Below, in pieces: positions 3,579 through 57,830 of a stretch of 64,000 nucleotides of DNA. Position 1 is the first letter of the stretch, and every line of letters starts with the position of its first letter. The position numbers were made by a program, and so were the translations under genes. The notes beneath the pieces were generated by a model. That model saw nothing but the letters and a program-made list of their open reading frames with translations. It made no database searches and was not told where the DNA came from. Source of the DNA: a virus (lineage: Duplodnaviria > Heunggongvirae > Uroviricota > Caudoviricetes). The stretch is taken from the IMG/VR virus record IMGVR_UViG_3300022746_000001, one strand, 5' to 3'.

Positions 3579-4053
3579 GAAGATCATCCTCAACGCCGCA
3601 GGCAAGGTCGAGCTAACCGTATGGCACAGCGGTTCAAACGTGTTCATCCAGCAGCCAGGCGCGGGACAGTCCTCGATGGACGTGCTGCTGCTGCCAGAAC
3701 TCATCAAGCAGCTTCAGAAAATCCAAAAAGAGACCATGCCGCTCCCACCCAGGAAGAACGACTGGAAAGAACTCGAAAAGACCTTCATGGACACCCAAGC
3801 GAGACTTCTGCAATGGGGACTGCAAGAGATACGGCTGCGAAGACAAGACCTGTCAAACCGAACAGAAGGCGGTCTGAAGATCGCGAAGCTGGCTGCAAAA
3901 TCACGACGCGAAGCCGCCGGCCTGACCGAAGCGGAAGCTGTGCTGTGGATGAAAGCTGCCCGTAAAGAGCTGGCAGACAGTCTCGTCAAAGAAGATGAGG
4001 CCCAAGCCACGATCAGCAGAGACGTTCCAGCCACAGACGAGGTGACATGGTGA
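3571..4053 (+). CDS. hypothetical protein
   Basis: GAGGGAG RBS before ATG 3571; ends ...DEVTW. Confidence 0.5.
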   Translation: MTKKIILNAAGKVELTVWHSGSNVFIQQPGAGQSSMDVLLLPELIKQLQKIQKETMPLPPRKNDWKELEKTFMDTQARLLQWGLQEIRLRRQDLSNRTEGGLKIAKLAAKSRREAAGLTEAEAVLWMKAARKELADSLVKEDEAQATISRDVPATDEVTW

Positions 4054-4211
4054 GCGACGCATGGAAACTCGGCAACCAAGCCGCATGGAGCTGGTGGGGA
4101 ACGCCACAACCACAAAACCCATTCACGGAAGGAACGCAAGAAGCAATCGACTGGGAAAAGGGTTTCGATATTGGCTGTGAAGACTATACGAACTGGTGGG
4201 AAAGCGAATGA
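4047..4211 (+). CDS. small Trp-rich protein (54 aa)
   Basis: ATGGTGA overlap with upstream stop; MVSDAWKLGNQAAWSWWG...NWWESE; below track cutoff. Confidence 0.35.
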   Translation: MVSDAWKLGNQAAWSWWGTPQPQNPFTEGTQEAIDWEKGFDIGCEDYTNWWESE

Positions 4212-4579
4212 GGGTTCTTGTCTGTGGCGGTCGCGATTACAGAGATTCTGCTTTCGTTAGTTTCGTTCTGGGCGTAATTCACGCAAAAAAATCAATCAAG
4301 CTGGTCATCCACGGTTGCGCACAAGGGGCAGACACCTTCGCAGAGCAATGGGCGTCTCAAATGAGCGATACGACAGCTTACGGTGTACCCGCAGACTGGA
4401 AGAAGCACGGTACGAGAGCTGGTCCCATCAGAAACAGGCTCATGCTGGAATTGGGCAAGCCAGATTTGGTCATTGCGTTCGAAGGCGGAGCTGGCACAAG
4501 GGACATGACGACTGCGGCGACAGCCGCTGGAGTGAAAGTCCTGTTTGCCGAGAAATTGCGACCACATTTCGAATCTTGA
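4208..4579 (+). CDS. DUF2493/SLOG-family Rossmann-fold protein (DprA/LOG-like)
   Basis: VLVCGGRDYRD...VIHGCAQGADTFAEQWA...GPIRNRLMLE...DLVIAFEGGAGTRDM matches SLOG/DUF2493 pattern. Confidence 0.6.
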   Translation: MRVLVCGGRDYRDSAFVSFVLGVIHAKKSIKLVIHGCAQGADTFAEQWASQMSDTTAYGVPADWKKHGTRAGPIRNRLMLELGKPDLVIAFEGGAGTRDMTTAATAAGVKVLFAEKLRPHFES

Positions 4580-4996
4580 GCCACTCAGCTCGAAATTTTT
4601 TGCTTGTATAAGGATAGACAATGTCCCCATCGGGTCATTTTTCTGTCGATCATGGGGATTTTGGTCAAAAATGTCCTCATCGGGGCATTTTCCATTGGGT
4701 CTTACGGATTCGGAGCCGGCTGTATAAGGACGTGAACTTAGGGTCTGCCTGGCTGTATAAGGGGCGCTAGGGGAGGTGGAAAACGAGGAAGGGGTCGCCT
4801 CCAAACCGAAGCACTTTTTCTAGGACTTCGGTATTATTTCTCCAATGTTTACTTTACGGTAAGCGCGTCATGCACTAACCACAAACAATAAACAAAACCT
4901 ATTGCAACCGCTGCACAATCAATTAAATCAATCATTGTTTAAACCTTGTTTGTTTGGTAAGTGGTGCAAGCTGTAACGCTTGCACCGTGTCACTCA

Positions 4997-5665
4997 TTAA
5001 GCATAGAACGCGATAACCGCGCGCGCTGCGTCATTCTCTCGCATTGTGATTGCATCATTGTTTTTTTGCTTGATAACGTTCGCAAGGTTCAACGCTTTGA
5101 GCATCATACGTGTGCTGCTTGCTTGAGTGCTTGCAGTTGATTCGCTGCAATTGTGCAAGCGTTTGAGCGTTTGCACTTGCTCTGTCTCGCTGTATTCGAT
5201 TGATTTACAAATGCTCATGCGTGATTCTTTGTTATTGATTGTTTGCAGCTTAACCAGATTAAACAAAATCGAGTTAGTGTAACCATCAAAACCAGAACGC
5301 GCATTGTTTGCAATTGCGTAAAGCGCTTTGCGTACTTTTTGCAGTGCATACACTGCGAGAAAATCATTTTTTGATTCTGTCTTCAATACTGCTATTTGAC
5401 GCGCAAGCGCTTGCAAATCAATTTTGAGCGCTTCGCACTTGCTCAGAATTACCGCTGCGTTTGCATCGTCAAAAAAACGATATTCTGCTGTGAGCGTGTC
5501 ACGCTGGTTATCATTGTCTGCGTTTTCAATTCTGCGTTTGATAGCTGCTAAAATTGCGGTTTGTGCTGCTGCTGCTGTGTCTGCTGCTGCTGTAGTTGCA
5601 ACCTTGCTTTGCTTTGCTTTTTTAGCTGCTGTAGTTGCTGCTGTGTTTGCGTTTGCTTTGCTCAT
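4997..5665 (-). CDS. hypothetical protein with Ala/Lys/Thr-rich histone-H1-like N-terminus
   Basis: AAAGGTGAAAAC RBS before ATG 5665; low-GC codon usage unlike neighbours. Confidence 0.5.
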   Translation of the reverse strand: MSKANANTAATTAAKKAKQSKVATTAAADTAAAAQTAILAAIKRRIENADNDNQRDTLTAEYRFFDDANAAVILSKCEALKIDLQALARQIAVLKTESKNDFLAVYALQKVRKALYAIANNARSGFDGYTNSILFNLVKLQTINNKESRMSICKSIEYSETEQVQTLKRLHNCSESTASTQASSTRMMLKALNLANVIKQKNNDAITMRENDAARAVIAFYA

Positions 5666-5859
5666 GTTTTCACCTTTAAAAGTTTGGTTTTTGAAACTCA
5701 ATCAAAATCAATTGAGTGAACGTAGTATAAACCAAAAAACAATCAAAAACCACGCAAGCACAAAAAAAAGTTGATTGTTTTTTTAAATCGCCATCATAGC
5801 TAAAAACAATCACACAAAATGCTTGTTTTGTGGTATACGTGAAAAACAATCAAGTCTCC

Positions 5860-6200
5860 TATAAGACAGGAGACAACTCTCCTAGGAGACAGGACATGGG
5901 TCTCCTATAAGACATAAGACAGGAGACAGGATGCGGACGATTCTCATTTAGGCGCCGATGCGGATGATCCGCATTTGCGATGCCGACTCCAGCTCCGACC
6001 CACGCACTGCCCTCTAACCTCCTAGGCAGCCCCAACCAGAGTCCATGCCGTACTCCATGCTCCTAGGCAAGTCCAACCAAAGCCCCTGCCGTACCCAATG
6101 GCGATGAGTACCAGTGTCCTACCCGTACCCAACCAGTGTTCGACCCGTTCCTAGGCGTCATCACGCTGCATAAAAGGGTGTGAAATCCATTCACACCCCC
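5860..6200. repeat. repeat-dense non-coding block: TCTCCT...AGGAGA palindromes, ATGCGGA-TG-ATCCGCAT palindrome, 33-bp imperfect direct repeats starting CCTAGGCA, CTGCCGTACCCAATGG copies
   Basis: read directly. Confidence 0.7.
6165..6198 (-). terminator. rho-independent terminator
   Basis: GGGTGTGAA-ATCCA-TTCACACCC then TTTTAT on minus strand. Confidence 0.5.
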
Positions 6201-6211
6201 TGCTCTATCCG

Positions 6212-6388
6212 TTAACGCTCGTCGTACAGGCGAGGTGTTCGGCGTACCGAGTGACCCTGACGCAGCATCTCTAGCTCCACGTCTTCTTGCATTTGGTCGT
6301 AGAAGTCTTCCTGGTCGTCGAATCGCTCGACAAATTGGAAGGTGTTGTTCTCTGTTGGCACAGGGTTAGTTTGAGCAATGCGTGACAT
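6212..6388 (-). CDS. small acidic protein (58 aa)
   Basis: AGGAG RBS 7 nt before ATG; MSRIAQTNPVPTENNTFQFVERFDDQEDFYDQMQEDVELEMLRQGHSVRRTPRLYDER; followed by hairpin terminator; below track cutoff. Confidence 0.45.
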   Translation of the reverse strand: MSRIAQTNPVPTENNTFQFVERFDDQEDFYDQMQEDVELEMLRQGHSVRRTPRLYDER

Positions 6389-6406
6389 GAGGTACTCCTG
6401 AAGCGG

Positions 6407-6661
6407 TTATTGCTTTGCGCTTGGTGTGGGGTACTGCATGCCGAACTCATCGGTTCGCTCGTCGTCTAGATCGCTATGCCCAAGAACATGCAAGCAATTG
6501 AGAATGGACGACATAGTGAATCCACCAGCGACATACAGACCGAACAACCACAGAGCGCCACCTCCATGTTGTTCAATTGCTTTGATGCAGGCGTATGCGA
6601 TTGCGGAACAGACCGTGATGGTCATTAAGGTGAGAACATAAACAGTTTGGCGATTGTTCAT
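6407..6661 (-). CDS. small membrane protein (2 TM)
   Basis: ORF track; hydrophobic segments. Confidence 0.5.
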   Translation of the reverse strand: MNNRQTVYVLTLMTITVCSAIAYACIKAIEQHGGGALWLFGLYVAGGFTMSSILNCLHVLGHSDLDDERTDEFGMQYPTPSAKQ

Positions 6662-6868
6662 GATTGTCTTTCATTTGTTGCACTCAAAATCGAGTAAATG
6701 AATTACATCATATAAAACAATCAAAAACCGCATGCCTAGATGATTGCCTGAAAGATCGCCTGCACTGGCCTAGGCGTCTTTTGGCCTACAGGTCAATGCT
6801 TACGGCCTAGGGGAATGTGTGGCCTGTGGCCTGAGAACCGAGCCTATCACTCGCTCGGTTTCTGTGGC

Positions 6869-7087
6869 CTACTCGTCGTCGAGATTCACGTAGTCAGGGG
6901 CATCCTGACGCTCAACCACGCGAATCGTCACACCTTCACAGACCGTTTCCAAGACGCTCTTGGTCGTTCTAACCAGCGCATCGAACGCTTCCTGCTCTAT
7001 GCGCTCGTCACGATTGTTCAAGGTCGCAAGCACTTGGAAGTCACCATCATCGCGGTCAAAGCCTATTGAAACGACTTCATGTGTCAT
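6869..7087 (-). CDS. hypothetical protein
   Basis: GGAG RBS, ATGA overlap with upstream gene. Confidence 0.5.
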   Translation of the reverse strand: MTHEVVSIGFDRDDGDFQVLATLNNRDERIEQEAFDALVRTTKSVLETVCEGVTIRVVERQDAPDYVNLDDE

Positions 7088-7335
7088 TGCGCACTCCAGT
7101 TCTTTTGATGCTCTTCCAACTTGATGGTCAGCGCGTAGATTGCTTCAAGCATTAGGGGAACAATATCAGCGCTTGCTTTCTTCGCTTTTTCCAAGCACTC
7201 AATTGCGTAATTAGGTGTGAAGAAGTAGATGGAGGATTCGTCAGCGTGATGCGAATCTTCGCCAAAACAATTGATAACCACACACAGGAGGTCTGCTTCG
7301 TCGTCGGTAAGGTTGCACTTGTCCAAGATGTTCAT
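7084..7335 (-). CDS. hypothetical protein
   Basis: ORF track; preceded by ACTCgattttGAGT palindrome element. Confidence 0.5.
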   Translation of the reverse strand: MNILDKCNLTDDEADLLCVVINCFGEDSHHADESSIYFFTPNYAIECLEKAKKASADIVPLMLEAIYALTIKLEEHQKNWSAQ

Positions 7336-7389
7336 GATGGTTTTGCGTTGTCACTCAAAATCGAGTGATTGAACTATAAGCGCAAAAAT

Positions 7390-8640
7390 CACTGCCTAAT
7401 CATGCTCGGTTCAATTCCCCTATAAGGTGTCCAATTCATGCTTTTCTCCTAGGGAGTTTCTTTTTAGGGGCAAACCTTATAGGGCAATGCCTAGGCAAAC
7501 TTATAGGAGTAGGCAAGCGAGCCTAGGCGAGCTTATACATTGGCAGAGCTTCCTAGAGTCTCCAATTGGCATTACCAGTGCCGCAGCCGTACCCAGTGGA
7601 TGAAAAGCCATCAAGGACATACCAGTCAGACAGCCGTACCCAATGGGTCAGTCCCTAGGGGTTTTGGATGCTTCGGACGCCGCGACTGGTCACGCTTTCT
7701 AGGCTTGGTCTCCTGTCTGCGAGTAGGCATGACGCCGATCCTGGGCTTTTGCCTAGGGACTTTGATGATGATCGTTTCTTTGGACATGCTCGAATTGTAG
7801 GGCGAAATTTCTTGTATAAGATTCGCCGCCGACTGCGTTAAATGATGAAGGGAATACTTCCCCCCAAACCTTATACATCTTTCCTAATTTTTCTTTTCCT
7901 ACTCTCTATCTACATACCTATACCTGAAGTTCTTCTTCCTAGCTTTTTATCATTCATTCTTCTATTCATCCTATGATTCATCCGTATGGTAGTTGTGGTC
8001 GTAGTCCTAGTCTTTATGCGGGTTCTTCGTTTCCGTGTCCGTCGTTTTGCTATTCATCTATCTATTCATCCTCTTAGCTGTTCCGATGTAGTTTGTGGTT
8101 GATTTTGTGCCTGTTCTTTTCTTAGCTGTTGTCGGTTCGGTTTGCTTTGGATTGTTTGTTCTTAGTTGTTTTGGGTGCCGAGTGTGTAAAGTTTGGGAAA
8201 GTTCTTCTTTACGTTTCTTGGGTTCTTTTTGGGGATGTGGGCAATTTCGGTCTGGCGTATATTTATATTTATTGCTTTTAAGGCTTATAGATTAAATGTC
8301 GCGGGATGGAAGAAAGCCTGACTCTGGCCTACGGGAGTTTGCTTACACTTTTCGGCCTCTGATTGTTCTCGGCCTCGTGTTTGATGCTTACGTGTTTTGG
8401 ACGGTCTCTTTAAACGACTTTTGAGCGCTTTTCCTGTGCTTGCTTAGTCGGTGGTATCAATGCTTGTTTGGCAGCGTTTTTGAGGTCGTTTTGAGTGCTT
8501 GGCCTATGGTCGTTTTTGCTTGCGTTTGTTTACATCAAAAAAGCTCAATTCCTGACAACTCAGGTGTCAGTTAGTGGTTGATGGGTCTTCCTCAAAAGTG
8601 GCGTTTTCCTGTTTAAAATCAATGACTTACGCCAAGGGGA
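7390..8640. repeat. non-coding region with CTTATA(G/C) iterons (7400-7860), CCTAGG-rich repeats, then T/G-rich direct repeats (7860-8640)
   Basis: read directly; no convincing ORFs. Confidence 0.65.
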
Positions 8641-8646
8641 CGAATT

Positions 8647-8682
8647 GTATACAAATAACCCCTAACTCGTAGGGGTTATTGA
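8647..8682. terminator. bidirectional hairpin terminator
   Basis: AACCCCTA-ACTCG-TAGGGGTT then TTTTT on plus; ATTTGTAT on minus. Confidence 0.5.
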
Positions 8683-8701
8683 GTGTTTTTGTACTCGATT
8701 T

Positions 8702-9154
8702 TTAGGCGATTTTTAGGTCGTTTTGAGACGCTGCCAAAGTCGGTGTTTTTTGGCTTTTTTGGAGCTTTTCTAGCTGCTGTTCACAGTAGATTCGGACACC
8801 GTCACGAGCAGCCTGCGGGCTGTGATTTTGAAGTGTGTTGTCGTGGATTTCTTGGATCATCTTCAGCTCCGAGACTTTCATGCCTGTCACGGTTTCGACG
8901 TTACGCTTGCCTAAGAAGTCTTTGGCGACATAGTCGATAGCTGATTCGTTGTAGCCTGCTTCGTCGATTGATTTCAGTTGGGTTTTGCTGAACAGCGAGC
9001 CTACCGCGCAGTTGTTGCCTGAAGCGTATAGGTACTCGCAACCTCCATCTTCCCCTTCTCTCTTAGGGCCAATCTTCTTCAAATTTGCCTGTTGAATGAT
9101 GTGTCGCAGGCTTTCTTCGCGTGTTCGGCATTCGACTCCGTTGATGATTTGCAT
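8702..9154 (-). CDS. hypothetical protein
   Basis: AAGGAG RBS before ATG 9154 (internal M of track ORF). Confidence 0.5.
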   Translation of the reverse strand: MQIINGVECRTREESLRHIIQQANLKKIGPKREGEDGGCEYLYASGNNCAVGSLFSKTQLKSIDEAGYNESAIDYVAKDFLGKRNVETVTGMKVSELKMIQEIHDNTLQNHSPQAARDGVRIYCEQQLEKLQKSQKTPTLAASQNDLKIA

Positions 9155-9177
9155 GATGGGTACTCCTTTGGTGTTAC

Positions 9178-9510
9178 TTAGTTGCCGATTGATTCGTAGT
9201 GCTGGATGAGGTGGTTGAGCCAAGCGTGTCTTGTCGCCTGAATCTTCTTCGGGTCGCGGAAGTTGCCATTTATCATGTAAAGGTCTTCCATACGACAGTG
9301 CTTATTGGCGACTAGCCAATCTTCGAGCGTAGTGTGGCCGTTGAGCAGTTCGGAGATGACATGCTTGGCTGCATAGATTCTGTCGTCATGGAGCGGGTGC
9401 CGAGCGAACAGTCGATTGATGGCGTGACAAACAAACTTTGGCTGATATGGTTGTCCGAAACCATTCCAAAGTTCGTATTTGGCTTCGCGGAAGATTTGAC
9501 TGAGTTTCAT
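9178..9510 (-). CDS. hypothetical protein (paralog of 17391-17729)
   Basis: MKLSQIFR...HAWLNHL...IGN resembles MKLSTIFR...HAWLESL...IGD. Confidence 0.55.
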   Translation of the reverse strand: MKLSQIFREAKYELWNGFGQPYQPKFVCHAINRLFARHPLHDDRIYAAKHVISELLNGHTTLEDWLVANKHCRMEDLYMINGNFRDPKKIQATRHAWLNHLIQHYESIGN

Positions 9511-9968
9511 TCTGCCGCCTCCGTCTTTGCCTTTTGCAGCCAAAAGATCATGGGCTTTGGGTCATACGTTGGCAGCTTCATGCCGTAGGCTATTCGAGTG
9601 AAGCAATGCCAGGGCGACTCCCCTTCATCAGAGCGTTCGGCATCACAGGGGACATTGCCTCGAACCTTATAGAGTGGGCAGGCTTCGCAGAAGACCTCGT
9701 CTCCATCTTCGTTTTCAGTGGTGGCGTCATCCGTATGGTGAAGAAGGCATAGGGCGCAGCTTTCGCTGTAGATGTAGAGATTAGGCGGATCGTATCGGTC
9801 GCCGTCCAAGTCAATTACCATTTGGTCAAGCATCGTGCATCGGTGTTTGGCGAGGTTTTCAGGCAGCAGGCCCAACCACTTCTGTAGGCTGTGGTCGATT
9901 GCGTCCTTTTTGCTTACCTTGCTTGCCTCAATCGGATAGAACTCCGCTTTCCATGTTTCTAAGCTCAT
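9507..9968 (-). CDS. hypothetical Cys-rich protein
   Basis: AAGGAG RBS; CALC...CEAC motifs. Confidence 0.55.
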   Translation of the reverse strand: MSLETWKAEFYPIEASKVSKKDAIDHSLQKWLGLLPENLAKHRCTMLDQMVIDLDGDRYDPPNLYIYSESCALCLLHHTDDATTENEDGDEVFCEACPLYKVRGNVPCDAERSDEGESPWHCFTRIAYGMKLPTYDPKPMIFWLQKAKTEAAE

Positions 9969-9991
9969 GGGGTACTCCTTTGGTATTGCTT

Positions 9992-10210
9992 TTACTCGTC
10001 TGCCGGCGGATTGACGGGGCTACCCATCCAATTCAGCTCTAGCCTGATGTAGTTGTTGAAGTGGGCGCGAACCTCGTCACCCTCCACCCCTGAGAAGAAC
10101 ATGCCTGCAACACCGCCATCCGACACTTCGAGCTTTTGCTGAATTGCGAGACAGGCGGCGTTGAGCGCGTCTTCGGCCAAGTCTTCGATTTCTTTTGCGG
10201 ACAATGTCAT
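9992..10210 (-). CDS. hypothetical protein
   Basis: AGGAG RBS. Confidence 0.45.
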   Translation of the reverse strand: MTLSAKEIEDLAEDALNAACLAIQQKLEVSDGGVAGMFFSGVEGDEVRAHFNNYIRLELNWMGSPVNPPADE

Positions 10211-21281: not shown

Positions 21282-21284
21282 GGG

Positions 21285-21851
21285 TTACTCCTTTGTAGTG
21301 TGGTGATCGACAGTCGTGTGTCCACGACCATCCATGTAAGCTCTAACATCGTCCAATGAGTACGGTGTCAGGTTGTTCGTGTCGCAGCCCACGTCCATGA
21401 GCCGCATACCTTCGTAGGGATGTTTTAACGTGCCATGCGAGTGACCGTGAAGCATCCAAGAGCCGTAGTGCGCTTTGTTCCAAGTCAGCATCGGGTAGTG
21501 GCACATCACGATGCGGTCGTAACCTCCATCGCTGCGCTGCACCTTCAACTCCTTCAGGTCTTGAATAGAAGCGAAGTGTTGCGTCACCAGTGCCGACTGC
21601 CTGGCTTTGTCGTGGTTGCCCTTGATCCAGTGTTTGACGCCATTCAGACGCTTGAGGATGTTGTGGGTGTACTCGGCGTTCTTGAAAGACAGATCGCCCA
21701 AGTGAAAGATGGTGTCTTTCTTGCCTACTACCTCATTCCAACGCTCGACAATGGCTTCGTCAACTTCAGCGGCAGTCTCAAAGCCACGATTGACGTGCTT
21801 GATGATGCCTTCATGACCGAAGTGAGTGTCGGACGTAAAAAAGTAATTCAT
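21285..21851 (-). CDS. calcineurin-like metallophosphoesterase
   Basis: SDTHFGH, GDL, GNHD, GHSHG motifs; GGGGGAG RBS. Confidence 0.7.
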   Translation of the reverse strand: MNYFFTSDTHFGHEGIIKHVNRGFETAAEVDEAIVERWNEVVGKKDTIFHLGDLSFKNAEYTHNILKRLNGVKHWIKGNHDKARQSALVTQHFASIQDLKELKVQRSDGGYDRIVMCHYPMLTWNKAHYGSWMLHGHSHGTLKHPYEGMRLMDVGCDTNNLTPYSLDDVRAYMDGRGHTTVDHHTTKE

Positions 21852-22213
21852 TAGAAACTCCCCCAATTGCCTTCGTACTTTTGTCTCATTACTGCGCGAG
21901 TGAGCGGATAGCTCTCCACAACAACAGGTTCTCCACCGTCGTCCACGTCAACCTTGGCAACCTTCTCAAGTCGAAATGGAACGCAGCGAATGCCTGTATC
22001 AGTTCCAAACTCTTCCGCATCGAGGTGGTAGCGAAAGCCTAAGAAGTCGAACGTGAGGTGGTGATAGAAGCCATTGGTGCTATGACTGACGTAATCAACC
22101 GTGTTCCGCATTACCGCATCGGCAATCGTTTCGATGGCGGCGATGTGCAGACTATTGGCGCATTCGATTACGGACAGATCGTCCGGCCACTCAAGCGACT
22201 GGAGGCGAATCAT
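21851..22213 (-). CDS. hypothetical protein
   Basis: TAATG overlaps at both ends; ends GNWGSF. Confidence 0.45.
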   Translation of the reverse strand: MIRLQSLEWPDDLSVIECANSLHIAAIETIADAVMRNTVDYVSHSTNGFYHHLTFDFLGFRYHLDAEEFGTDTGIRCVPFRLEKVAKVDVDDGGEPVVVESYPLTRAVMRQKYEGNWGSF

Positions 22214-22473
22214 TAGTCCACTCTCTCGTCGTCGATGTAGATGGCGCAACTGCCAGCGCCAGCAATGCAGACCTTGTAGTCGTTCAATCCGAAGATGCCT
22301 GACACCATGAAAATGACGTGCAGAGCGCCGACTACAGCAAGAGCCTTAATCACAGCACTTGCGTACTTTGTACGGCCAATTTTCCTATCACCAGCGTTGT
22401 GATGATTCCCAGAATGGCGATGACAATCAGTAGCTCGATGAGGGTGAAACCCCGTTGTTTGGCTTTCATACAT
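22213..22473 (-). pseudogene. type IV pilin/pseudopilin-like gene interrupted by a frameshift
   Basis: AGGAG RBS + ATG (22469) gives prepilin N-terminus MKAKQRGFTLIELLIVIAILGII that stops after 38 codons; the long frame carries a pilin-like C-terminus with Cys pair CIAGAGSC but a nonsense-looking N-terminus. Confidence 0.45.
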
Positions 22474-22478
22474 GCTCC

Positions 22479-22835
22479 TTAGTCCGCTAAAGTTTCTGGC
22501 ACTTCAACTTCGACACCGAACGCCAAGAACACACGTTGAATCATCCAGCTTGCAATTAGCTTGGAACCATTTGAGAGCGTGTAGCCTATCGGGTTGAAAG
22601 GCTCGATTTGCATAGACTTGCAAAGCTGAAGCCAATTAGCTTCAACAATCGGCCCTGCGACAGACCAATCGTTTGCGTAGTCGGGGATGGGAAACGGTTG
22701 GTCGCCCATGAAAGCGTCTACCGTCTCAAGATAGTGGAGACCGTCTTCAGTGAGCGTTAAGCCCTCTGCTTTAGCCACAGCGTAGTTCAACGCTGCACCA
22801 GTCAGGCGTGAGGTCAATACCTTCTTCATTGTCAT
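22479..22835 (-). CDS. hypothetical protein
   Basis: AAAGGA RBS. Confidence 0.5.
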   Translation of the reverse strand: MTMKKVLTSRLTGAALNYAVAKAEGLTLTEDGLHYLETVDAFMGDQPFPIPDYANDWSVAGPIVEANWLQLCKSMQIEPFNPIGYTLSNGSKLIASWMIQRVFLAFGVEVEVPETLAD

Positions 22836-23663: not shown

Positions 23664-24446
23664 TTATCGCTGGATATTGAGCATCTTCCCTGACGATGAC
23701 CCATCGAGAATCACCGTACCGCCTCGTTCCGCGAACTTCATGAGGACTTGGTTGTACTCGTGCTGGAGAAAGCCAGGTGTCAGCGTCAGTGCCGTTTGTT
23801 GCGTAGCTTTAGCGTTGGCTTCAGCGACCGCCACGTTCAGCTTTGCAGCCTCAAGCTCTTTCTCTTTCGCCACGACGTTGCGAATGGATTGCTCGATGGT
23901 TTCGTCCGTCTTAACTTGGCGAACGACGACTCGGGTGACTTTGAATGCGCCAGGGTCTGATGCGTCCAGCTTCTTCTGAATCGCCGCCTGAGATAGACCA
24001 GCCAGCTTCTCGCGTTGGGTGTGGATGACCAAGCTATCCATTGTGGAGACAGCGTCCGCGATTTCACTCTCGGAGATGCTTTTGACCAAGATATACATGG
24101 GCCACCAGATGCCTTTGCCATTATTCAAGGACTGACCCGTGCGCTTGACCGACAGATCACGAATGGCGTTGGGGTCAACCGTGTAGTAGACCGTCATGTC
24201 CAACTCTGCCAAAGACAGGTTGTCGTGCGCTTTGGGCTTCAGGTTGTCCAGCGTGACTGGAATCTCTTTAGCCGAATACTCATCGACATGGCCGAACATG
24301 GCGGTGTAGAAGCCAGGCGACTCGATCTTCTTGTTGACCTCGCCATTGAAGTCGGTGCGAACACCGATATTGCCTGTCTCAATGCGGCCGCAAGCGGTCA
24401 ACATTGTGGCAAAGCAGATTACGAAAAGGGTAAATAGTCGTTTCAT
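23664..24446 (-). CDS. SPFH/band-7 (stomatin/prohibitin-like) lipoprotein
   Basis: signal peptide + lipobox LTAC; SPFH-like core; Ala/Glu-rich coiled coil AKEKELEAAKLNVAVAEANAKA. Confidence 0.55.
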   Translation of the reverse strand: MKRLFTLFVICFATMLTACGRIETGNIGVRTDFNGEVNKKIESPGFYTAMFGHVDEYSAKEIPVTLDNLKPKAHDNLSLAELDMTVYYTVDPNAIRDLSVKRTGQSLNNGKGIWWPMYILVKSISESEIADAVSTMDSLVIHTQREKLAGLSQAAIQKKLDASDPGAFKVTRVVVRQVKTDETIEQSIRNVVAKEKELEAAKLNVAVAEANAKATQQTALTLTPGFLQHEYNQVLMKFAERGGTVILDGSSSGKMLNIQR

Positions 24447-24455
24447 GGACTCTCC

Positions 24456-24656
24456 TTAAATTGCGTGTTCGACCGTGAACAGGAACGAGAAAGCCACCAC
24501 GGTCACGACAATGGCTACCAAGATCAGGAACATCCAATTGCCTACCTTACGAGCGACGGCGATCGCTTGCTTGGGGTTCTTCTTGGAGTACCAAATGAGG
24601 AACAACGAACCGAAGAAAATCGGCAAGATGAAAAAGAAGATGACTCGGAAGATCAT
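24456..24656 (-). CDS. small 2-TM membrane protein (NfeD-like partner of SPFH?)
   Basis: hydrophobic; immediately downstream of SPFH gene. Confidence 0.4.
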   Translation of the reverse strand: MIFRVIFFFILPIFFGSLFLIWYSKKNPKQAIAVARKVGNWMFLILVAIVVTVVAFSFLFTVEHAI

Positions 24657-25843
24657 TGGAACTCCGTTGTCTCGCCTTTGCGCAGCAAGTAAGCGTCCGA
24701 AACGCTCTTTGCAATCTTGCGGCCGTACTGAGGGTGTTGAGCCTCAGATGCCGACTTCACTACAACGCCTTCGCGAATCTGGCTGATATAGTTGCGCGTG
24801 ATGGTTGGCTGCACGAGTGTGTTGCCATTGGTGTGTTCGAGGACGACCTCTTTACTGTAGGGGCCGACAAAAAGAACAGGTACGATTGGCACATCCATCT
24901 CTGTAGCGGCCGCGCAGAACTCGTCCCAATGGAACCACTGCTCATTGCCTCGTGTGCCGCAGACAGCGTCAAACATCCGAAAGCCAAGCTGTTCGCGGTC
25001 ATAGGTCAGGTCTTGGACGCCAGCGCCACTGAGCGTCAGTCCATAGACTTCGCCCACCATGAAGTGCGGCTTGTTGACTTCGTTGGCGGCGTCACCGAAG
25101 TATTTCAGCGCCTTCTCAAACAGGTCATGCTTCTTGGCGCACTGGATGTAGAGGTTGGTTTCGTCAGTAAAGTCCAGAACGAAGCCTTGACGACCCATGC
25201 CTTTGCTGGAGATGGTCACACGCCCTTTGTAGTAGCGCTCATTCGCCATTGATTCAGGCACGACACCGATCTGCATGAGCGTTCCATGAATCTTCTCGGT
25301 GATGACAACTGTCTCGCCATCTTCGAACAGTTCAGGGCGCTTCTTCAGGTTCTCGAAGTCGTAGCCGAGCGTTGCTGCCAAATCGACACCAGCGATCTTG
25401 CCAGCCATGTGCGATGGGATGTGCGGCTCCCACTTTGTAATACCTAAAGCCTCAGAAGCATCTTCACCTTCGGCCAAAAGCGCCATGCCCTGATTGCCTT
25501 CATGCTCTTGCGCGACTACCATGATGGAAGTGTCGTTGTAGGGCGTGCCAGGAACCATCAAGCCTTGCGAGACGATGCCACGCAGCTTGATAGCCTTCAC
25601 ACGGTTGCCCACGCTGCCGGCGAGACCACCCTTGCCACGAGTCGAGTCCCACAGTCCCATTTCTTCGAGCAGCCACTGAGGTACGAGCGCTTGCTCAGGG
25701 ATGTAGACGCCAAGATCGCCGTCTTTGAACTGGCCCTTCTTGACGATTGATTGATAGTCGCCAACCCGAGCTATCTCGATGGCGTCTGCGTTCGGATGCG
25801 GTTCGATTTTGACGCGAACCACTTCACAGGCAAATGTACTCAT
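24653..25843 (-). CDS. putative ATP-dependent RNA ligase with N-terminal tRNA-binding OB domain
   Basis: N-terminal EPHPNADAIEIARVGD resembles CsaA/EMAP tRNA-binding fold; candidate nucleotidyltransferase lysine in VITEKIHGT. Confidence 0.5.
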   Translation of the reverse strand: MSTFACEVVRVKIEPHPNADAIEIARVGDYQSIVKKGQFKDGDLGVYIPEQALVPQWLLEEMGLWDSTRGKGGLAGSVGNRVKAIKLRGIVSQGLMVPGTPYNDTSIMVVAQEHEGNQGMALLAEGEDASEALGITKWEPHIPSHMAGKIAGVDLAATLGYDFENLKKRPELFEDGETVVITEKIHGTLMQIGVVPESMANERYYKGRVTISSKGMGRQGFVLDFTDETNLYIQCAKKHDLFEKALKYFGDAANEVNKPHFMVGEVYGLTLSGAGVQDLTYDREQLGFRMFDAVCGTRGNEQWFHWDEFCAAATEMDVPIVPVLFVGPYSKEVVLEHTNGNTLVQPTITRNYISQIREGVVVKSASEAQHPQYGRKIAKSVSDAYLLRKGETTEFQ

Positions 25844-33175: not shown

Positions 33176-33263
33176 TGGCGGAAGCGGTGAGATTCGAACT
33201 CACGGAACCTTGCGGTTCGACTGGGTTCAAGCCAGTTGCCATAGACCACTCGACCACACTTCC
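33176..33263 (-). tRNA. tRNA-Ser (anticodon UGA), CCA encoded
   Basis: long variable arm; anticodon loop CTTGAAC; T-arm GGTTCGAATCTC. Confidence 0.8.
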
Positions 33264-33270
33264 TAAATCT

Positions 33271-33355
33271 TGGTGCCCAGAGTCGGACTCGAACCGACAC
33301 GCCTCGCGGCGACGGCTTCTGAGGCCGTTGCGTCTACCAATTTCACCACCTGGGC
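33271..33355 (-). tRNA. tRNA-Leu (anticodon CAG), CCA encoded
   Basis: anticodon loop CTCAGAA; long variable arm; T-loop GTTCGAGTC. Confidence 0.8.
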
Positions 33356-33356
33356 T

Positions 33357-33432
<76 letters not shown>

Positions 33433-33535
33433 ATCATGAATGAAGGCTTTCGTCCAGCTCGGGATAGGTCGGTAGTTAGCCGTTTCAGTTTCACCCGTCC
33501 CCTGGGAATCGAACCCAGAAGCCTTCATTCATGAT
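33433..33535 (-). other. about 100-nt element with 15-bp terminal inverted repeats containing a tRNA T-arm-like hairpin (tRNA-like fragment / structured RNA / miniature insertion)
   Basis: ATCATGAATGAAGGC ... GCCTTCATTCATGAT flank CTGGGTTCGATTCCCAG (minus strand) and tandem TGAAAC repeats; no complete cloverleaf found. Confidence 0.35.
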
Positions 33536-33610
33536 GGTGCCGCCTTGAGGAATTGAACCCCAGACCTTCTGCTTACAAGGCAGCTGCTCTACCAACTGAG
33601 CTAAGGCGGC
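33535..33610 (-). tRNA. tRNA-Thr (anticodon UGU), CCA encoded
   Basis: GCCGCCTTAGCTCAGTTGGTAGAGC; anticodon loop CTTGTAA; 7-bp acceptor stem. Confidence 0.75.
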
Positions 33611-33614
33611 TTAA

Positions 33615-33691
33615 TGGTCGGAGATGCAGGATTCGAACCTGCGACCCTCTGCTCCCAAAGCAGATGCGCTACCAGACTGCGCTAATCTCCG
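33615..33691 (-). tRNA. tRNA-Pro (anticodon UGG), CCA encoded
   Basis: CGGAGATTAGCGCAGTCTGGTAGCGC; anticodon loop TTTGGGA. Confidence 0.8.
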
Positions 33692-33695
33692 ATAC

Positions 33696-33770
33696 TGGTA
33701 CTCGGTGCGGGAATCGAACCCGCCTTACCGCCGTGAAAGGGCGGTGTCCTAACCGATAGACGAACCGAGC
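33696..33770 (-). tRNA. tRNA-Glu (anticodon UUC), CCA encoded
   Basis: anticodon stem-loop CCGCC-CTTTCAC-GGCGG; T-arm GCGGGTTCGATTCCCGC. Confidence 0.75.
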
Positions 33771-33861
33771 GTTCCATCAAGTCTGTTCTCTCGTGGGTCA
33801 AGCTACTCCTTTGCCGTCAAGAGGCTTGTTTCACCATTCCTCTTAGAGAGGACAGACTTCA

Positions 33862-33937
33862 TGGCTCCCCAGGGTGGGTTCGAACCACCGACACATGGAT
33901 TAACAGTCCATTGCTCTACCAACTGAGCTACTAGGGA
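33862..33937 (-). tRNA. tRNA-Asn (anticodon GUU), CCA encoded
   Basis: TCCCTAGTAGCTCAGTTGGTAGAGC; anticodon loop CTGTTAA. Confidence 0.8.
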
Positions 33938-34034
33938 ATGACGGTGCGTATGGAGTTGTACCCCAGACGTTTGTCGGCTTTTATAGTCCCCACACCTTTA
34001 GGACTACCGTGTCTCTGTTCTTCTTGCAAGAAAC

Positions 34035-34111
34035 TGGTTGCGGGGGCAGGACTCGAACCTGCGACCTCTGGATTATGAGTCCAGCGCTCTAACCTACTGA
34101 GCTACCCCGCT
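34035..34111 (-). tRNA. tRNA-Met (anticodon CAU; elongator or Ile2-type), CCA encoded
   Basis: anticodon loop CTCATAA; A1xA72 unpaired; no GGG/CCC initiator anticodon stem. Confidence 0.7.
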
Positions 34112-56122: not shown

Positions 56123-56380
56123 ATGATGATGCGTTTTATAAAGATTGCCGAAGTCGAACAGATTTCAGGATTCAAGAAATCCAAGATTTATTCCATGATC
56201 CAACAGGGCGAGTTTCCTCAACCCGTCAAGATCGGTCGCTCGTCTAATTGGCTACTCTCGGAGCTTGAGGGATGGATAGCCTTGCGCGCCATGCAGCGAA
56301 CCACTCCCACGGTTGAATGGAGTAGTTACAGTTCCCAGAGCGCAGGTCATCCAGATAGTCAGCCCACCCCTGCACCATGA
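56123..56380 (+). CDS. alpA: AlpA-family excisionase-like DNA-binding protein
   Basis: MRFIKIAEVEQISGFKKSKIYSMIQQGEFPQPVKIGRSSNWLLSELEGWI matches AlpA pattern; 3' end overlaps integrase by about 137 nt. Confidence 0.65.
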   Translation: MMMRFIKIAEVEQISGFKKSKIYSMIQQGEFPQPVKIGRSSNWLLSELEGWIALRAMQRTTPTVEWSSYSSQSAGHPDSQPTPAP

Positions 56381-57518
56381 TGCAGCGCTCTTGCCAATAC
56401 TCAGCGCGGTTGTAGGCGCGTTCAACCTTACTCTCCAGCTCGTGCGCTAATTGCTTTTCGACAACTTTGGAATCGAAGCCGCCCTCTTCCAACAAGGTCT
56501 TGGCAGTAGTTCTAAAGCCGTGTGTGGAGTGAATTTCTTTGTAGCCCAGGCGATGCAAGTTCTTCATGAAGGTGGTGTCGCCATAGACGCCACCTCGCGG
56601 ACTTGGGAATACAAGACCTTCCGAGCCTGTGACTGTTTTCAGGTTTTCAAGCATTTCAACTGCTTGCTTGGACAGAGGGCACAGAAAGTCTTTTCTTGCT
56701 TTCATCTGATGCGCCGGTAATGTCCAAGTCGCATTCGGAAGATCAAACTGTTCCCATGATGCGTATCGTAAGTTTTGCGGACGAACGAAGACCAACGCAT
56801 TCAGGCGCAACGCAATCACAGGCAATGTCTGCTCGTCGTTGTCCAGCTTTCGCAATAACTCCCCAAGTTGTTCAGGGACAATGAGTGCAGGAAAGTGACG
56901 CTCTTTATGCTGCGCAAATCCATCGCGCTTTACTCTTGCAATTGGATTGCCTGGAAGTTCGCCGCGATCATAAGCGGCTTCAAATGCTCGATTTAGGAGT
57001 GATCGTACTCGGGTTAGCTTGTAATTCGCACCGCGCTTTTCTACTCTTTCAAGCAAGCTCCGAATGTCATCAGGTGTGATACCGATCGCCTCGCGTTTAC
57101 CGATGAACGGTAGAACGTCTCGCTTCATGGCAATCTCATAGTCGTCGTAGTGAGTGTCGCTCCAATCTTTCTTGTTGCGCTCCATCCACCCGTACAAAAG
57201 TTCCGAGACCGTTTGGTGCTTGGTCACGATCCTCTCGACACGACGAGCCTCGACAGGGTCTTTCCCCAACTGTACTTTTTCCCTAGCTTGCTGTGCCAGG
57301 GTACGAGCCGTACTTAGCGAGACTGCGGGATAGGTTCCGATGGAATAGGTCTTACGTTTTCCATACAGGGAGTAGTTCAAAGTCCAGCTTGCAGAGCCGT
57401 TGGGTCGAACGACTAGGTACAGGTTTTCGCCGTCCGCTATCTTCGTTACTCCACCCTTGTCTCTTGCTTGCTTGAGCCTTGATTCTAAAGACTTTTGGGA
57501 CAACTCATGTAACGCCAT
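56244..57518 (-). CDS. int: tyrosine integrase (P4-type, N-terminal arm-binding domain)
   Basis: GGAGG RBS before ATG 57518; catalytic-region HGFRTT...HEL...RAYNRAEY. Confidence 0.8.
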   Translation of the reverse strand: MALHELSQKSLESRLKQARDKGGVTKIADGENLYLVVRPNGSASWTLNYSLYGKRKTYSIGTYPAVSLSTARTLAQQAREKVQLGKDPVEARRVERIVTKHQTVSELLYGWMERNKKDWSDTHYDDYEIAMKRDVLPFIGKREAIGITPDDIRSLLERVEKRGANYKLTRVRSLLNRAFEAAYDRGELPGNPIARVKRDGFAQHKERHFPALIVPEQLGELLRKLDNDEQTLPVIALRLNALVFVRPQNLRYASWEQFDLPNATWTLPAHQMKARKDFLCPLSKQAVEMLENLKTVTGSEGLVFPSPRGGVYGDTTFMKNLHRLGYKEIHSTHGFRTTAKTLLEEGGFDSKVVEKQLAHELESKVERAYNRAEYWQERCIMVQGWADYLDDLRSGNCNYSIQPWEWFAAWRARLSIPQAPRVAN

Positions 57519-57519
57519 G

Positions 57520-57830
57520 TGGTAACGCCTCCAAACAAATGTGGTAACGGTCTTGAGTGTAGTGACCGATTTCTTAGTTACCACCGGCGTTACCACTTTA
57601 TTTTCTGGAAGTCAGGGGATTGGCATGGAGAGTGGTGGAAAAGAAAAACCCCCAGAACCTAGTGGTGGTGGGGGTTTCGCTTTTGCTGAACACTCTGGCG
57701 GAGGTCAGCGGACTACCAGTTTCAAGCAGGTGCCAAATATTTGGCGGAGACGGAGGGATTCGTACTTCTAGTCTCTATGAGGCTTTCGGGAGGATTCCAA
57801 ATTCGTTACCACCGCCGTTACCACTTGAGT
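57520..57830. repeat. candidate att region with direct GTTACCAC arm-type repeats
   Basis: GTTACCACCGGCGTTACCACTT and GTTACCACCGCCGTTACCACTTGAGTG plus further GTTACCAC/GTGGTAAC copies beside integrase start. Confidence 0.5.
57640..57676 (-). terminator. rho-independent terminator
   Basis: CCCCCA...TGGGGG stem then TTTTTCTTTTCC on minus strand. Confidence 0.55.

Follow-up and report, generated by a model that had tools for sequence, protein, structure and literature searches.

The window analysed here is a 64,000-nucleotide stretch of DNA from a tailed virus of the Caudoviricetes (IMG/VR record IMGVR_UViG_3300022746_000001), and the element in question is a small locus on its minus strand, at positions 22213–22473, where a prepilin-type reading frame stops early inside an overlapping frame. 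In our reading, to which we give a probability of roughly 65%, the locus consists of two separate and intact small genes, one for a mini-prepilin peptide and one for a membrane protein of 46 amino acids (aa), which are translationally coupled. A preliminary description had seen one pilin or pseudopilin gene broken by a 1-nucleotide (nt) frameshift. Its observation is confirmed and its interpretation is partly supported. When both frames were aligned to pilin profiles and homologous phages were compared, no intact fused version appeared. Instead, the short peptide and the downstream protein are in essence conserved independently of each other, the outcome that had been named in advance as evidence against a single gene.

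A probable pair of coupled small genes in overlapping frames

The whole feature is carried by the minus strand. Read directly, the order from the stop of the upstream NinX-like gene onward is TAAGGAG-C-ATG-T-ATG. The Shine-Dalgarno (SD) sequence TAAGGAG (22475–22481, also a direct reading) is kept in 7/7 homologous sequences, and in the window its TAA doubles as the stop of the NinX-like gene. Its spacing is 5 nt to ATG 22469 and 1 nt to ATG 22473. ATG 22469 opens frame A, which has 39 codons and ends with a TGA at 22352–22350, and ATG 22473 opens frame B, which has 86 codons and ends with a TAA at 22215–22213. The step from frame A to frame B is a −1 shift. The frame-A TGA and a frame-B GTG meet in the junction GTGA (22353–22350), and the frame-B TAA overlaps the ATG of the next gene (TAATG). 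Such GTGA, ATGA, and TAATG junctions are the rule along this gene chain, and no promoter or terminator was found within 2 kb.

The mini-prepilin gene is frame A (22350–22469). Its complete product, MKAKQRGFTLIELLIVIAILGIITTLVIGKLAVQSTQVL, can be divided as MKAKQRG|FTLIELLIVIAILGIITTLVIGKLAVQSTQVL and has the hallmarks of a prepilin: the short basic leader MKAKQR, Gly at −1, Phe at +1, Glu at +5, and a hydrophobic helix of about 20 residues. Prepilin peptidases recognise their substrates by this Gly/Phe/Glu motif in combination with a hydrophobic helix. The predicted peptidase site is Gly7|Phe8 (22451–22446), and the predicted mature peptide of 32 aa would comprise the alpha1-N helix only. The best 19-residue Kyte-Doolittle window of the 39-aa peptide averages 2.92. 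Frame A matched the Pfam model N_methyl (PF07963) with an E-value of 3.6e-11 (42.6 bits, cut-off 21.2) and the NCBIfam model TIGR02532 with 38.9 bits (cut-off 16.3). These scores and the TAAGGAG in front bear out the prepilin-type N-terminus and strong ribosome-binding site of the preliminary description. The early stop that it reported is also real, and it comes after 39 codons, not 38.

All full-length type IV pilin and type II secretion system (T2SS) pseudopilin models stayed far under their cut-offs with the 39-aa peptide, the best being GspH with 31 bits against a cut-off of 80. Frame A, which stops at residue 39 in all lineages, holds no alpha1-C, beta-sheet head, or D-region. The closest solved-structure matches of the peptide in the PDB are Geobacter PilA-N chains (E 1e-5 to 3e-3), aligned in frame A to residue 33. 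The alignment passes the helix-breaking position 22 into the tail, where IGKLAV stands against IPQFAA. The pilin homology thus follows frame A to its stop and does not cross the frame switch. The codon of Gly29 (22383–22385, minus strand) is GGA or GGG in all lineages, each of which makes up about 6% of the Gly codons in the long genes of the phage. The rare Gly29 codons are compatible with a foreign origin of the mini-prepilin open reading frame (ORF), although their significance is not established.

We compared seven sequences that fall into three lineages (the window with L010 and L011; L004; and L005, L006, and L009). A protein search with the hypothetical fusion of the two frames found two 86-aa proteins (P0001 and P0002), and their contigs, together with contigs reached via the downstream gene, gave the seven sequences. 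L010 and L011, obtained from other samples, do not differ from the window in this region, and the other two lineages have about 80–89% DNA identity to it. The alignment of the seven sequences contains zero indels. All lineages keep both ATGs, the 39-codon length of frame A with its TGA, the GTGA overlap, and the sequence MKAKQRG|FTLIE. Nei-Gojobori estimates of the ratio of nonsynonymous to synonymous substitution rates (dN/dS) for nt 1–90 were 0.14–0.22 in frame A and 2–3 in frame B (codons 2–31), and from the GTG onward frame B, which is there the 46-aa gene, showed 0.07–0.22. Therefore, frame A is translated at the 5′ end and frame B at the 3′ end, and both are functional. The overlapping frame does continue downstream as coding sequence, as had been described, and 22213–22473 are exactly the limits of the 86-codon ORF. 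The high ratio at the N-terminus of frame B agrees with its having been called nonsense-looking.

The small membrane-protein gene has 46 codons in frame B (22213–22353) and starts with the GTG at 22353–22351. Its product, (M)IKALAVVGALHVIFMVSGIFGLNDYKVCIAGAGSCAIYIDDERVD, has one transmembrane (TM) helix, an acidic C-tail, and a C-x6-C motif. The C-terminus of the frame reads ...NDYKVCIAGAGSCAIYIDDERVD and carries CIAGAGSC; the end of the frame was also read as ...GRTKYASAVIKALAVVGALHVIFMVSGIFGLNDYKVCIAGAGSCAIYIDDERVD. Besides the 86-aa cluster, an exhaustive profile search of 1.84 billion representatives found two short proteins, P0007 and P0008, with hidden Markov model E-values of 3e-7 and 4.5e-6. 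P0007 has 42 aa (MIKFLAVIGALHLLLIFTGALGLNDYHLCVKYAGGCSVVKSK), and P0008 has 41 aa as called and 47 aa from an overlapping ATG. Two more proteins of 47 aa each (P0010 and P0011) came from a further profile search. The start of every homologue falls in the alignment column of the window GTG 22353, with the N-termini MIKFLAV (P0007), MIRALAW (P0011), MKRALAM (P0010), and MRRVLAM (locus L013) beside (V/M)IKALAV in the window. The frame-A stop therefore coincides exactly with the codon that was ancestrally the start of the small gene. The invariant positions of the family alignment are M1, L5, A6, G9, A10, G19, G22, L23, D25, C29, G34, and C36. The window protein shows the family traits, namely a length of 40–47 aa and a basic N-terminus followed by a TM helix and then by G-L-x-D-[YF]-[KH]-[VL]-C ... 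G-x-C. The profile phrog_36417 matches it weakly, residues 1–36 to profile positions 1–36.

The small gene also stands without a pilin ORF. The syntenic loci L013–L022 read RNA ligase, small ORFs, Band_7, 68-aa ORF, RNase_T, small gene (47 aa), and Metallophos; the small gene directly follows the RNase_T gene, and its ATG sits on the RNase_T stop (ATGA). A GF[ST]L.E motif scan of all fetched loci found no pilin ORF in these pilin-less loci. Locus L012 has an unrelated 56-aa ORF as the upstream neighbour of the small gene, whose homologous ATG is preceded at a distance of 4 codons by a stop in the same frame. The family start overlaps the preceding stop as ATGA in L012, L013, and L015–L022 and as GTGA in the window and its three lineages. 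In L013 (4123–4126) and at the equivalent places of L015 and L019, the gene after the 47-aa protein starts with a GTG on a TGA (GTGA), with the conserved sequence AAAGGAGAAAGGG before it. GTG-initiated starts that overlap a stop are routine in this phage group.

The C-terminal region had been taken for pilin-like, and this part of the preliminary description did not hold. No Pfam or NCBIfam family matched the 46-aa sequence, and the profile of the small-protein family matched no solved chain. For each NCBIfam pilin model that was returned, the fused protein scored lower than or equal to the 39-aa peptide. Fusing frame B to frame A changed the score from 26.3 to 19.8 bits for ComGC, from 24.5 to 18.3 for XpsI, from 26.9 to 25.5 for GspG, and from 31.0 to 30.9 for GspH, and that of phrog_13280 went from 34.8 to 32.7 bits. 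With these scores and with stand-alone homologues of 42–47 aa in pilin-less phages, the C-terminal part reads, at the level of sequence comparison, as a separate gene that is not pilin-like.

The conserved island and the competing explanations

Several points weigh against two coupled genes. GTG 22353 has no recognisable SD sequence upstream, so the restart would rest on coupling alone. ATG 22473 and an open frame B are retained in all three lineages, which has a chance probability of about 0.3 per lineage. The pilin-bearing lineages available are only three because scans of IMG/VR and JGI with a profile of the C-terminal part, both flanking proteins, and a degenerate DNA pattern for GRTKYASAVI gave no relatives. 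Other searches returned little as well. When the region was compared with GenBank phages by megablast and blastn, the only matches were weak and fell in the flanking genes for an exonuclease and a phosphoesterase in Pseudomonas phages. With tblastn, the fused protein matched nothing but generic pilin N-termini, and the 46- and 47-aa proteins had no significant match. The function of both peptides is purely inferred, and our literature search on mini-pilins or pilin mimics of bacterial phages found nothing relevant.

A further point against it comes from the 26 nt before the GTG (22354–22379), a conserved island with only 3 substitutions across the three lineages, all at frame-A second and frame-B third positions. 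In frame B none of the three changes an amino acid of GRTKYASA (dN 0, dS 0.19–0.82), and in frame A all are non-synonymous, the pattern that frame-B translation upstream of the GTG would give. We calculated likelihoods by hand from the substitution counts, taking the site-class rates from the unambiguous parts. The likelihood was 7.9e-5 for frame-B coding, 1.2e-4 for uniform nucleotide constraint, and 6.7e-8 for frame-A coding alone. The island needs some constraint beyond frame A, and coding in frame A only is rejected, but frame-B coding is not required. Constraint on a translation-initiation region fits the island as well as frame-B coding does.

We attribute the island to translation initiation of the GTG gene because equally dense islands precede neighbouring starts. 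Before the ATG of the Metallophos (phosphoesterase) gene, 4/27 sites are variable, compared with 17/18 further upstream, and 2/27 are variable before the start of a 122-aa gene. Similar islands lie before coupled starts in the pilin-less relatives. With such neighbours and an equal fit of the uniform-constraint model, we did not accept the island as proof of frame-B translation. More generally, the approximately 27 nt before starts (21852–21878 and 21282–21308 in the window, minus strand; also in L004 and L009) vary far less than the coding sequence that precedes them, suggesting that initiation regions in this phage group are under strong constraint at the nucleotide level. The sequence AAGTACG, which occurs before two gene starts, was rejected as a shared regulatory motif; it corresponds to Lys-Tyr codons, which are common on the coding strand.

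The 86-codon frame-B ORF (22213–22473), as called automatically for P0001 and P0002, overlaps the mini-prepilin gene with its first 40 codons in the −1 frame, and gene callers annotate it in each of the public assemblies L004, L005, L006, L009, L010, and L011. The start of frame B is His/Arg-rich, and initiation at ATG 22473 would be expected to give the peptide MYESQTTGFHPHR. If this call is right, the locus is an overprinted pair whose starts lie 4 nt apart (ATGTATG), with a 39-aa peptide made from ATG 22469 and an 86-aa protein, bearing an unconstrained cytoplasmic extension of about 31 residues, made from ATG 22473. Both the persistence of that ATG with an open frame and the frame-B-like substitutions across GRTKYASA speak for such a pair. 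With its basic N-terminal extension, the 86-aa protein would be oriented N-in, as predicted for the stand-alone homologues, and in the window the stop of the upstream gene lies 5 nt before ATG 22473, where terminating ribosomes could restart. However, it is the second ATG that stands at 5 nt from the SD sequence and the first that stands at 1 nt. A 1-nt spacing is too close for SD-directed initiation.

The open frame itself is also explained more simply. Since hydrophobic NTN codons cannot make stops in the −1 frame, frame B is expected to be open by chance with a probability of about 0.31–0.35 per lineage, and we did not count the open frame in favour of an 86-aa protein. At the protein level the extension is not conserved, as its dN/dS shows, and an overprinted pair leaves unexplained why the frame-A stop coincides with the ancestral start of the small gene. 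We regard overprinting as improbable, and the 86-codon ORF is probably a chimeric call rather than a gene. Neither any of the 39-aa peptides nor the 46-aa protein was present in exact look-ups of a 15-billion-protein collection. A minor product, either a low-level fusion or an 86-aa protein initiated at ATG 22473, may still be made.

Programmed frameshifting, one of the causes offered in the preliminary description, would act as a conserved −1 shift near codons 29–31 (GGA AAA TTG). It would yield an 85-aa fusion of the prepilin leader and helix, GRTKYASA, and the small membrane protein, beside the 39-aa termination product. Between nt 90 and 95, the pattern of selection does change in all lineages from that of frame A to one resembling frame B, and no indel accompanies the change. 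The sole slippery-looking spot near this switch is the A_AAA of GGA AAA (22380–22385), which in the window could be slipped by tRNA-Lys and which includes the rare Gly29 codon (GGA or GGG, 6% each in this phage). This spot is not conserved, as it is GGG AAC in L004 and GGA AAC in L005, L006, and L009. Reading A_GGA_AAA, T_GGG_AAC, or T_GGA_AAC, the site lacks the slippery heptamer X_XXY_YYZ in every lineage, and the nucleotides around it (nt 82, 84, 87, and 90) are among the most variable positions, exactly where fixity would be expected. A small hairpin of 5–6 bp (CGTAC-AAA-GTACG, 22374–22362, minus strand) begins 5 nt after the AAA codon and lies inside the island. Single-sequence folds were not significant and no better than shuffles, with z-scores of −0.65, +1.05, and +0.03, and no covarying or compensatory changes in the hairpin were found across the lineages.

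A pilin-like protein, P0003, reads ...GIGRTK... after its helix, as a fusion would, but it was picked via a 5-residue word and the match can be due to chance. No relative that joins both parts in a single ORF was found in 1.84 billion representatives or in word-indexed searches. The C-terminal part is complete alone elsewhere, and the fusion adds nothing to the pilin scores. The fusion would also place the K/R-rich GKIGRTK loop in the periplasm, which inverts the topology predicted from charge for the stand-alone relatives; this argument relies on the positive-inside rule. We therefore consider a conserved programmed frameshift unlikely, and we see only a slim chance that the prepilin signal is joined to the small membrane protein by a conserved but non-canonical −1 recoding.

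Despite the stretch of four A's close to the frame switch (22380–22383), a homopolymer indel from sequencing or assembly or a recently inactivated pilin pseudogene, which had both been suggested, is hardly credible, because L010 and L011 are identical assemblies from different samples, the two further lineages share the frames without an indel and with the run replaced by GGGAAC or GGAAAC, and both parts are under purifying selection (dN/dS 0.07–0.22).

Proposed function, phage context, and origin

Under the two-gene reading, ribosomes would start at the well-spaced ATG 22469 behind TAAGGAG and make the 39-aa peptide. Those that end at its TGA would restart on the overlapping GTG of the GTGA junction by termination-reinitiation coupling and make the 46-aa single-pass membrane protein. 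The 39-aa peptide would be inserted N-in into the inner membrane, where a host prepilin peptidase of the PilD/GspO class may cleave after Gly7 and N-methylate the Phe. Having no globular domain, the product could interfere with the type IV pilus or type II secretion machinery of the host as a decoy or poison subunit, either by competing for the peptidase or the platform or by entering the filament base. Piliation would then be blocked during infection, with superinfection exclusion as one possible outcome and the sparing of progeny from trapping as another.

We propose only tentatively, and at clearly less than even odds, that the 39-aa ORF encodes a helix-only pilin mimic, whose 32-residue N-methyl-Phe peptide, acting either as a competitive substrate or as a dominant-negative subunit, would halt type IV pilus assembly, type II secretion assembly, or both. 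In this role it may cooperate with the coupled 46-aa membrane protein. With 32 mature residues, the peptide would come near the smallest size for a natural substrate or decoy of prepilin peptidases and pilus platforms, and it lends itself to testing whether phages switch off pili or secretion through pilin mimicry. In public data, the prepilin-type gene and the small membrane-protein family would both be hidden by a frame artefact, the chimeric 86-aa 'hypothetical protein', and the same annotation trap probably affects other overlapping phage micro-genes.

The gene content of the window is phage-like and includes a DnaE-type polymerase, a ribonucleotide reductase (RNR), ligases, a primase, an RNA ligase, an SbcC-like protein, and 8 tRNAs. 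The best cultured relatives are Rhizobium, Stenotrophomonas, and Pseudomonas phages of 108–122 kb, with a polymerase identity of only about 41–44%. The source is best explained as an uncultured phage of about 105–112 kb, in which the gene pair lies within a chain of start-stop-coupled early or middle genes. Upstream lies the 118-aa NinX-like gene (22479–22835, minus strand; PF10765, E 6e-7), and downstream lies a 120-aa gene (21851–22213, minus strand) that is start-stop coupled through the TAATG and has the homologues P0004–P0006. The NinX-like gene is absent from the L005/L006/L009 lineage, where the mini-prepilin gene is directly 3′ of the RNase_T exonuclease gene.

The order is RNase_T, NinX, mini-pilin, and small gene in the window and L004; RNase_T, mini-pilin, and small gene in L009; and RNase_T and small gene in L013–L022. 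Because of these three gene orders, the unit of about 135 nt formed by the SD sequence and the mini-pilin ORF can be regarded as a lineage-specific insertion at a variable junction. We infer that its source was presumably the 5′ part of a host gene for a pilin or pseudopilin.

The chain of genes also includes, a short distance upstream, an RNA ligase gene (24653–25843, minus strand; PF09414 with a PHA02142 OB domain) and an SPFH/Band_7 lipoprotein-like gene (23664–24446, minus strand), both conserved in all related loci. Further features of the window were also recorded. Eight tRNA genes (Ser-tga, Leu-cag, Trp-cca, Thr-tgt, Pro-tgg, Glu-ttc, Asn-gtt, and Met-cat) lie at 33176–34111 on the minus strand. 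An ORF of 450 aa (56244–57596, minus strand) in the replication module matches tyrosine integrase families (phrog_1, E 1e-51) in this otherwise lytic-looking, DnaE-encoding phage. The GC content at 4001–10000 is 0.46–0.49 compared with about 0.52 elsewhere, and the AT skew reaches −0.33 at 8001–10000.

Comparison with known systems

The window peptide shares with the prepilin-type N-terminal domain (PF07963/TIGR02532) the leader, Gly−1, Phe+1, Glu+5, and the helix of about 20 residues. Type IV pilins and T2SS pseudopilins continue beyond this helix, whereas the window ORF ends 32 residues after the cleavage site. Similarly short prepilin-like ORFs are known from other phages: orf026 of vB_PaeM_G1 and gp132 of KPP10 (59 aa, Pseudomonas), KVP40.0030 of a Vibrio phage (66 aa), and PHROG families 13280, 10597, and 11263 (59–72 positions); a 'pilin' family, phrog_3433, also exists. 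Like the window ORF, these are small ORFs of lytic phages with a prepilin N-terminus and little or nothing behind it, and they lie among small early or 'host takeover' genes, as in the window. The window peptide, with 39 aa, is shorter than G1 orf026, KVP40.0030, and the PHROG profiles, and its ORF differs from the other short phage ORFs in being start-stop coupled to a small membrane-protein gene. The likeness to PHROG 13280, 10597, and 11263 is limited to the generic N-terminal motif, with common descent not established. The helix-only pilin is a recurring gene type in lytic phages of piliated hosts, for which we found no assigned role, and the window locus is a further member of this known class of short phage prepilin-like ORFs.

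Among solved structures, the best matches to the window peptide are those of Geobacter PilA-N ('Geopilin domain 1'; PDB 2M7G/6VK9, 9EGP, and 7TGG). PilA-N is a naturally truncated pilin encoded beside PilA-C and provides a precedent for a helix-only pilin with a separate partner gene. Mature PilA-N, however, has 61 aa with a full alpha1, whereas the window peptide would have 32 aa. The 46-aa neighbour in the window has no detectable relation to any solved chain, and it also exists without a pilin gene in sister phages.

Virus-encoded pilins of full length are known from the archaeal pleolipovirus SNJ2, whose host-captured type IV pilins PilA1 and PilA2 are handled by the host pilus machinery (PMC12426801). 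These are complete and filament-forming, whereas the window peptide consists of the signal and the membrane helix only. Phage inhibitors of type IV pili are described in PMC12426801 and PMC11436027 and include Tip/gp05 of D3112, Aqs1 of DMS3, and PfsE of Pf4, a membrane peptide of about 30 aa that binds PilC. According to work cited in PMC12426801, Tip acts on PilB and PfsE on PilC, and both shut down type IV pili. The proposed logic is alike, a tiny phage protein that disables a host pilus machine, and the resemblance to Tip, Aqs1, and PfsE is in logic only. PfsE is also a very small inner-membrane peptide, as the window peptide is predicted to be. However, these inhibitors are not pilin-like, whereas the window peptide would mimic a subunit. 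If this proposal is right, pilin mimicry would be a path to superinfection exclusion that is distinct from the known phage proteins that bind PilB or PilC.

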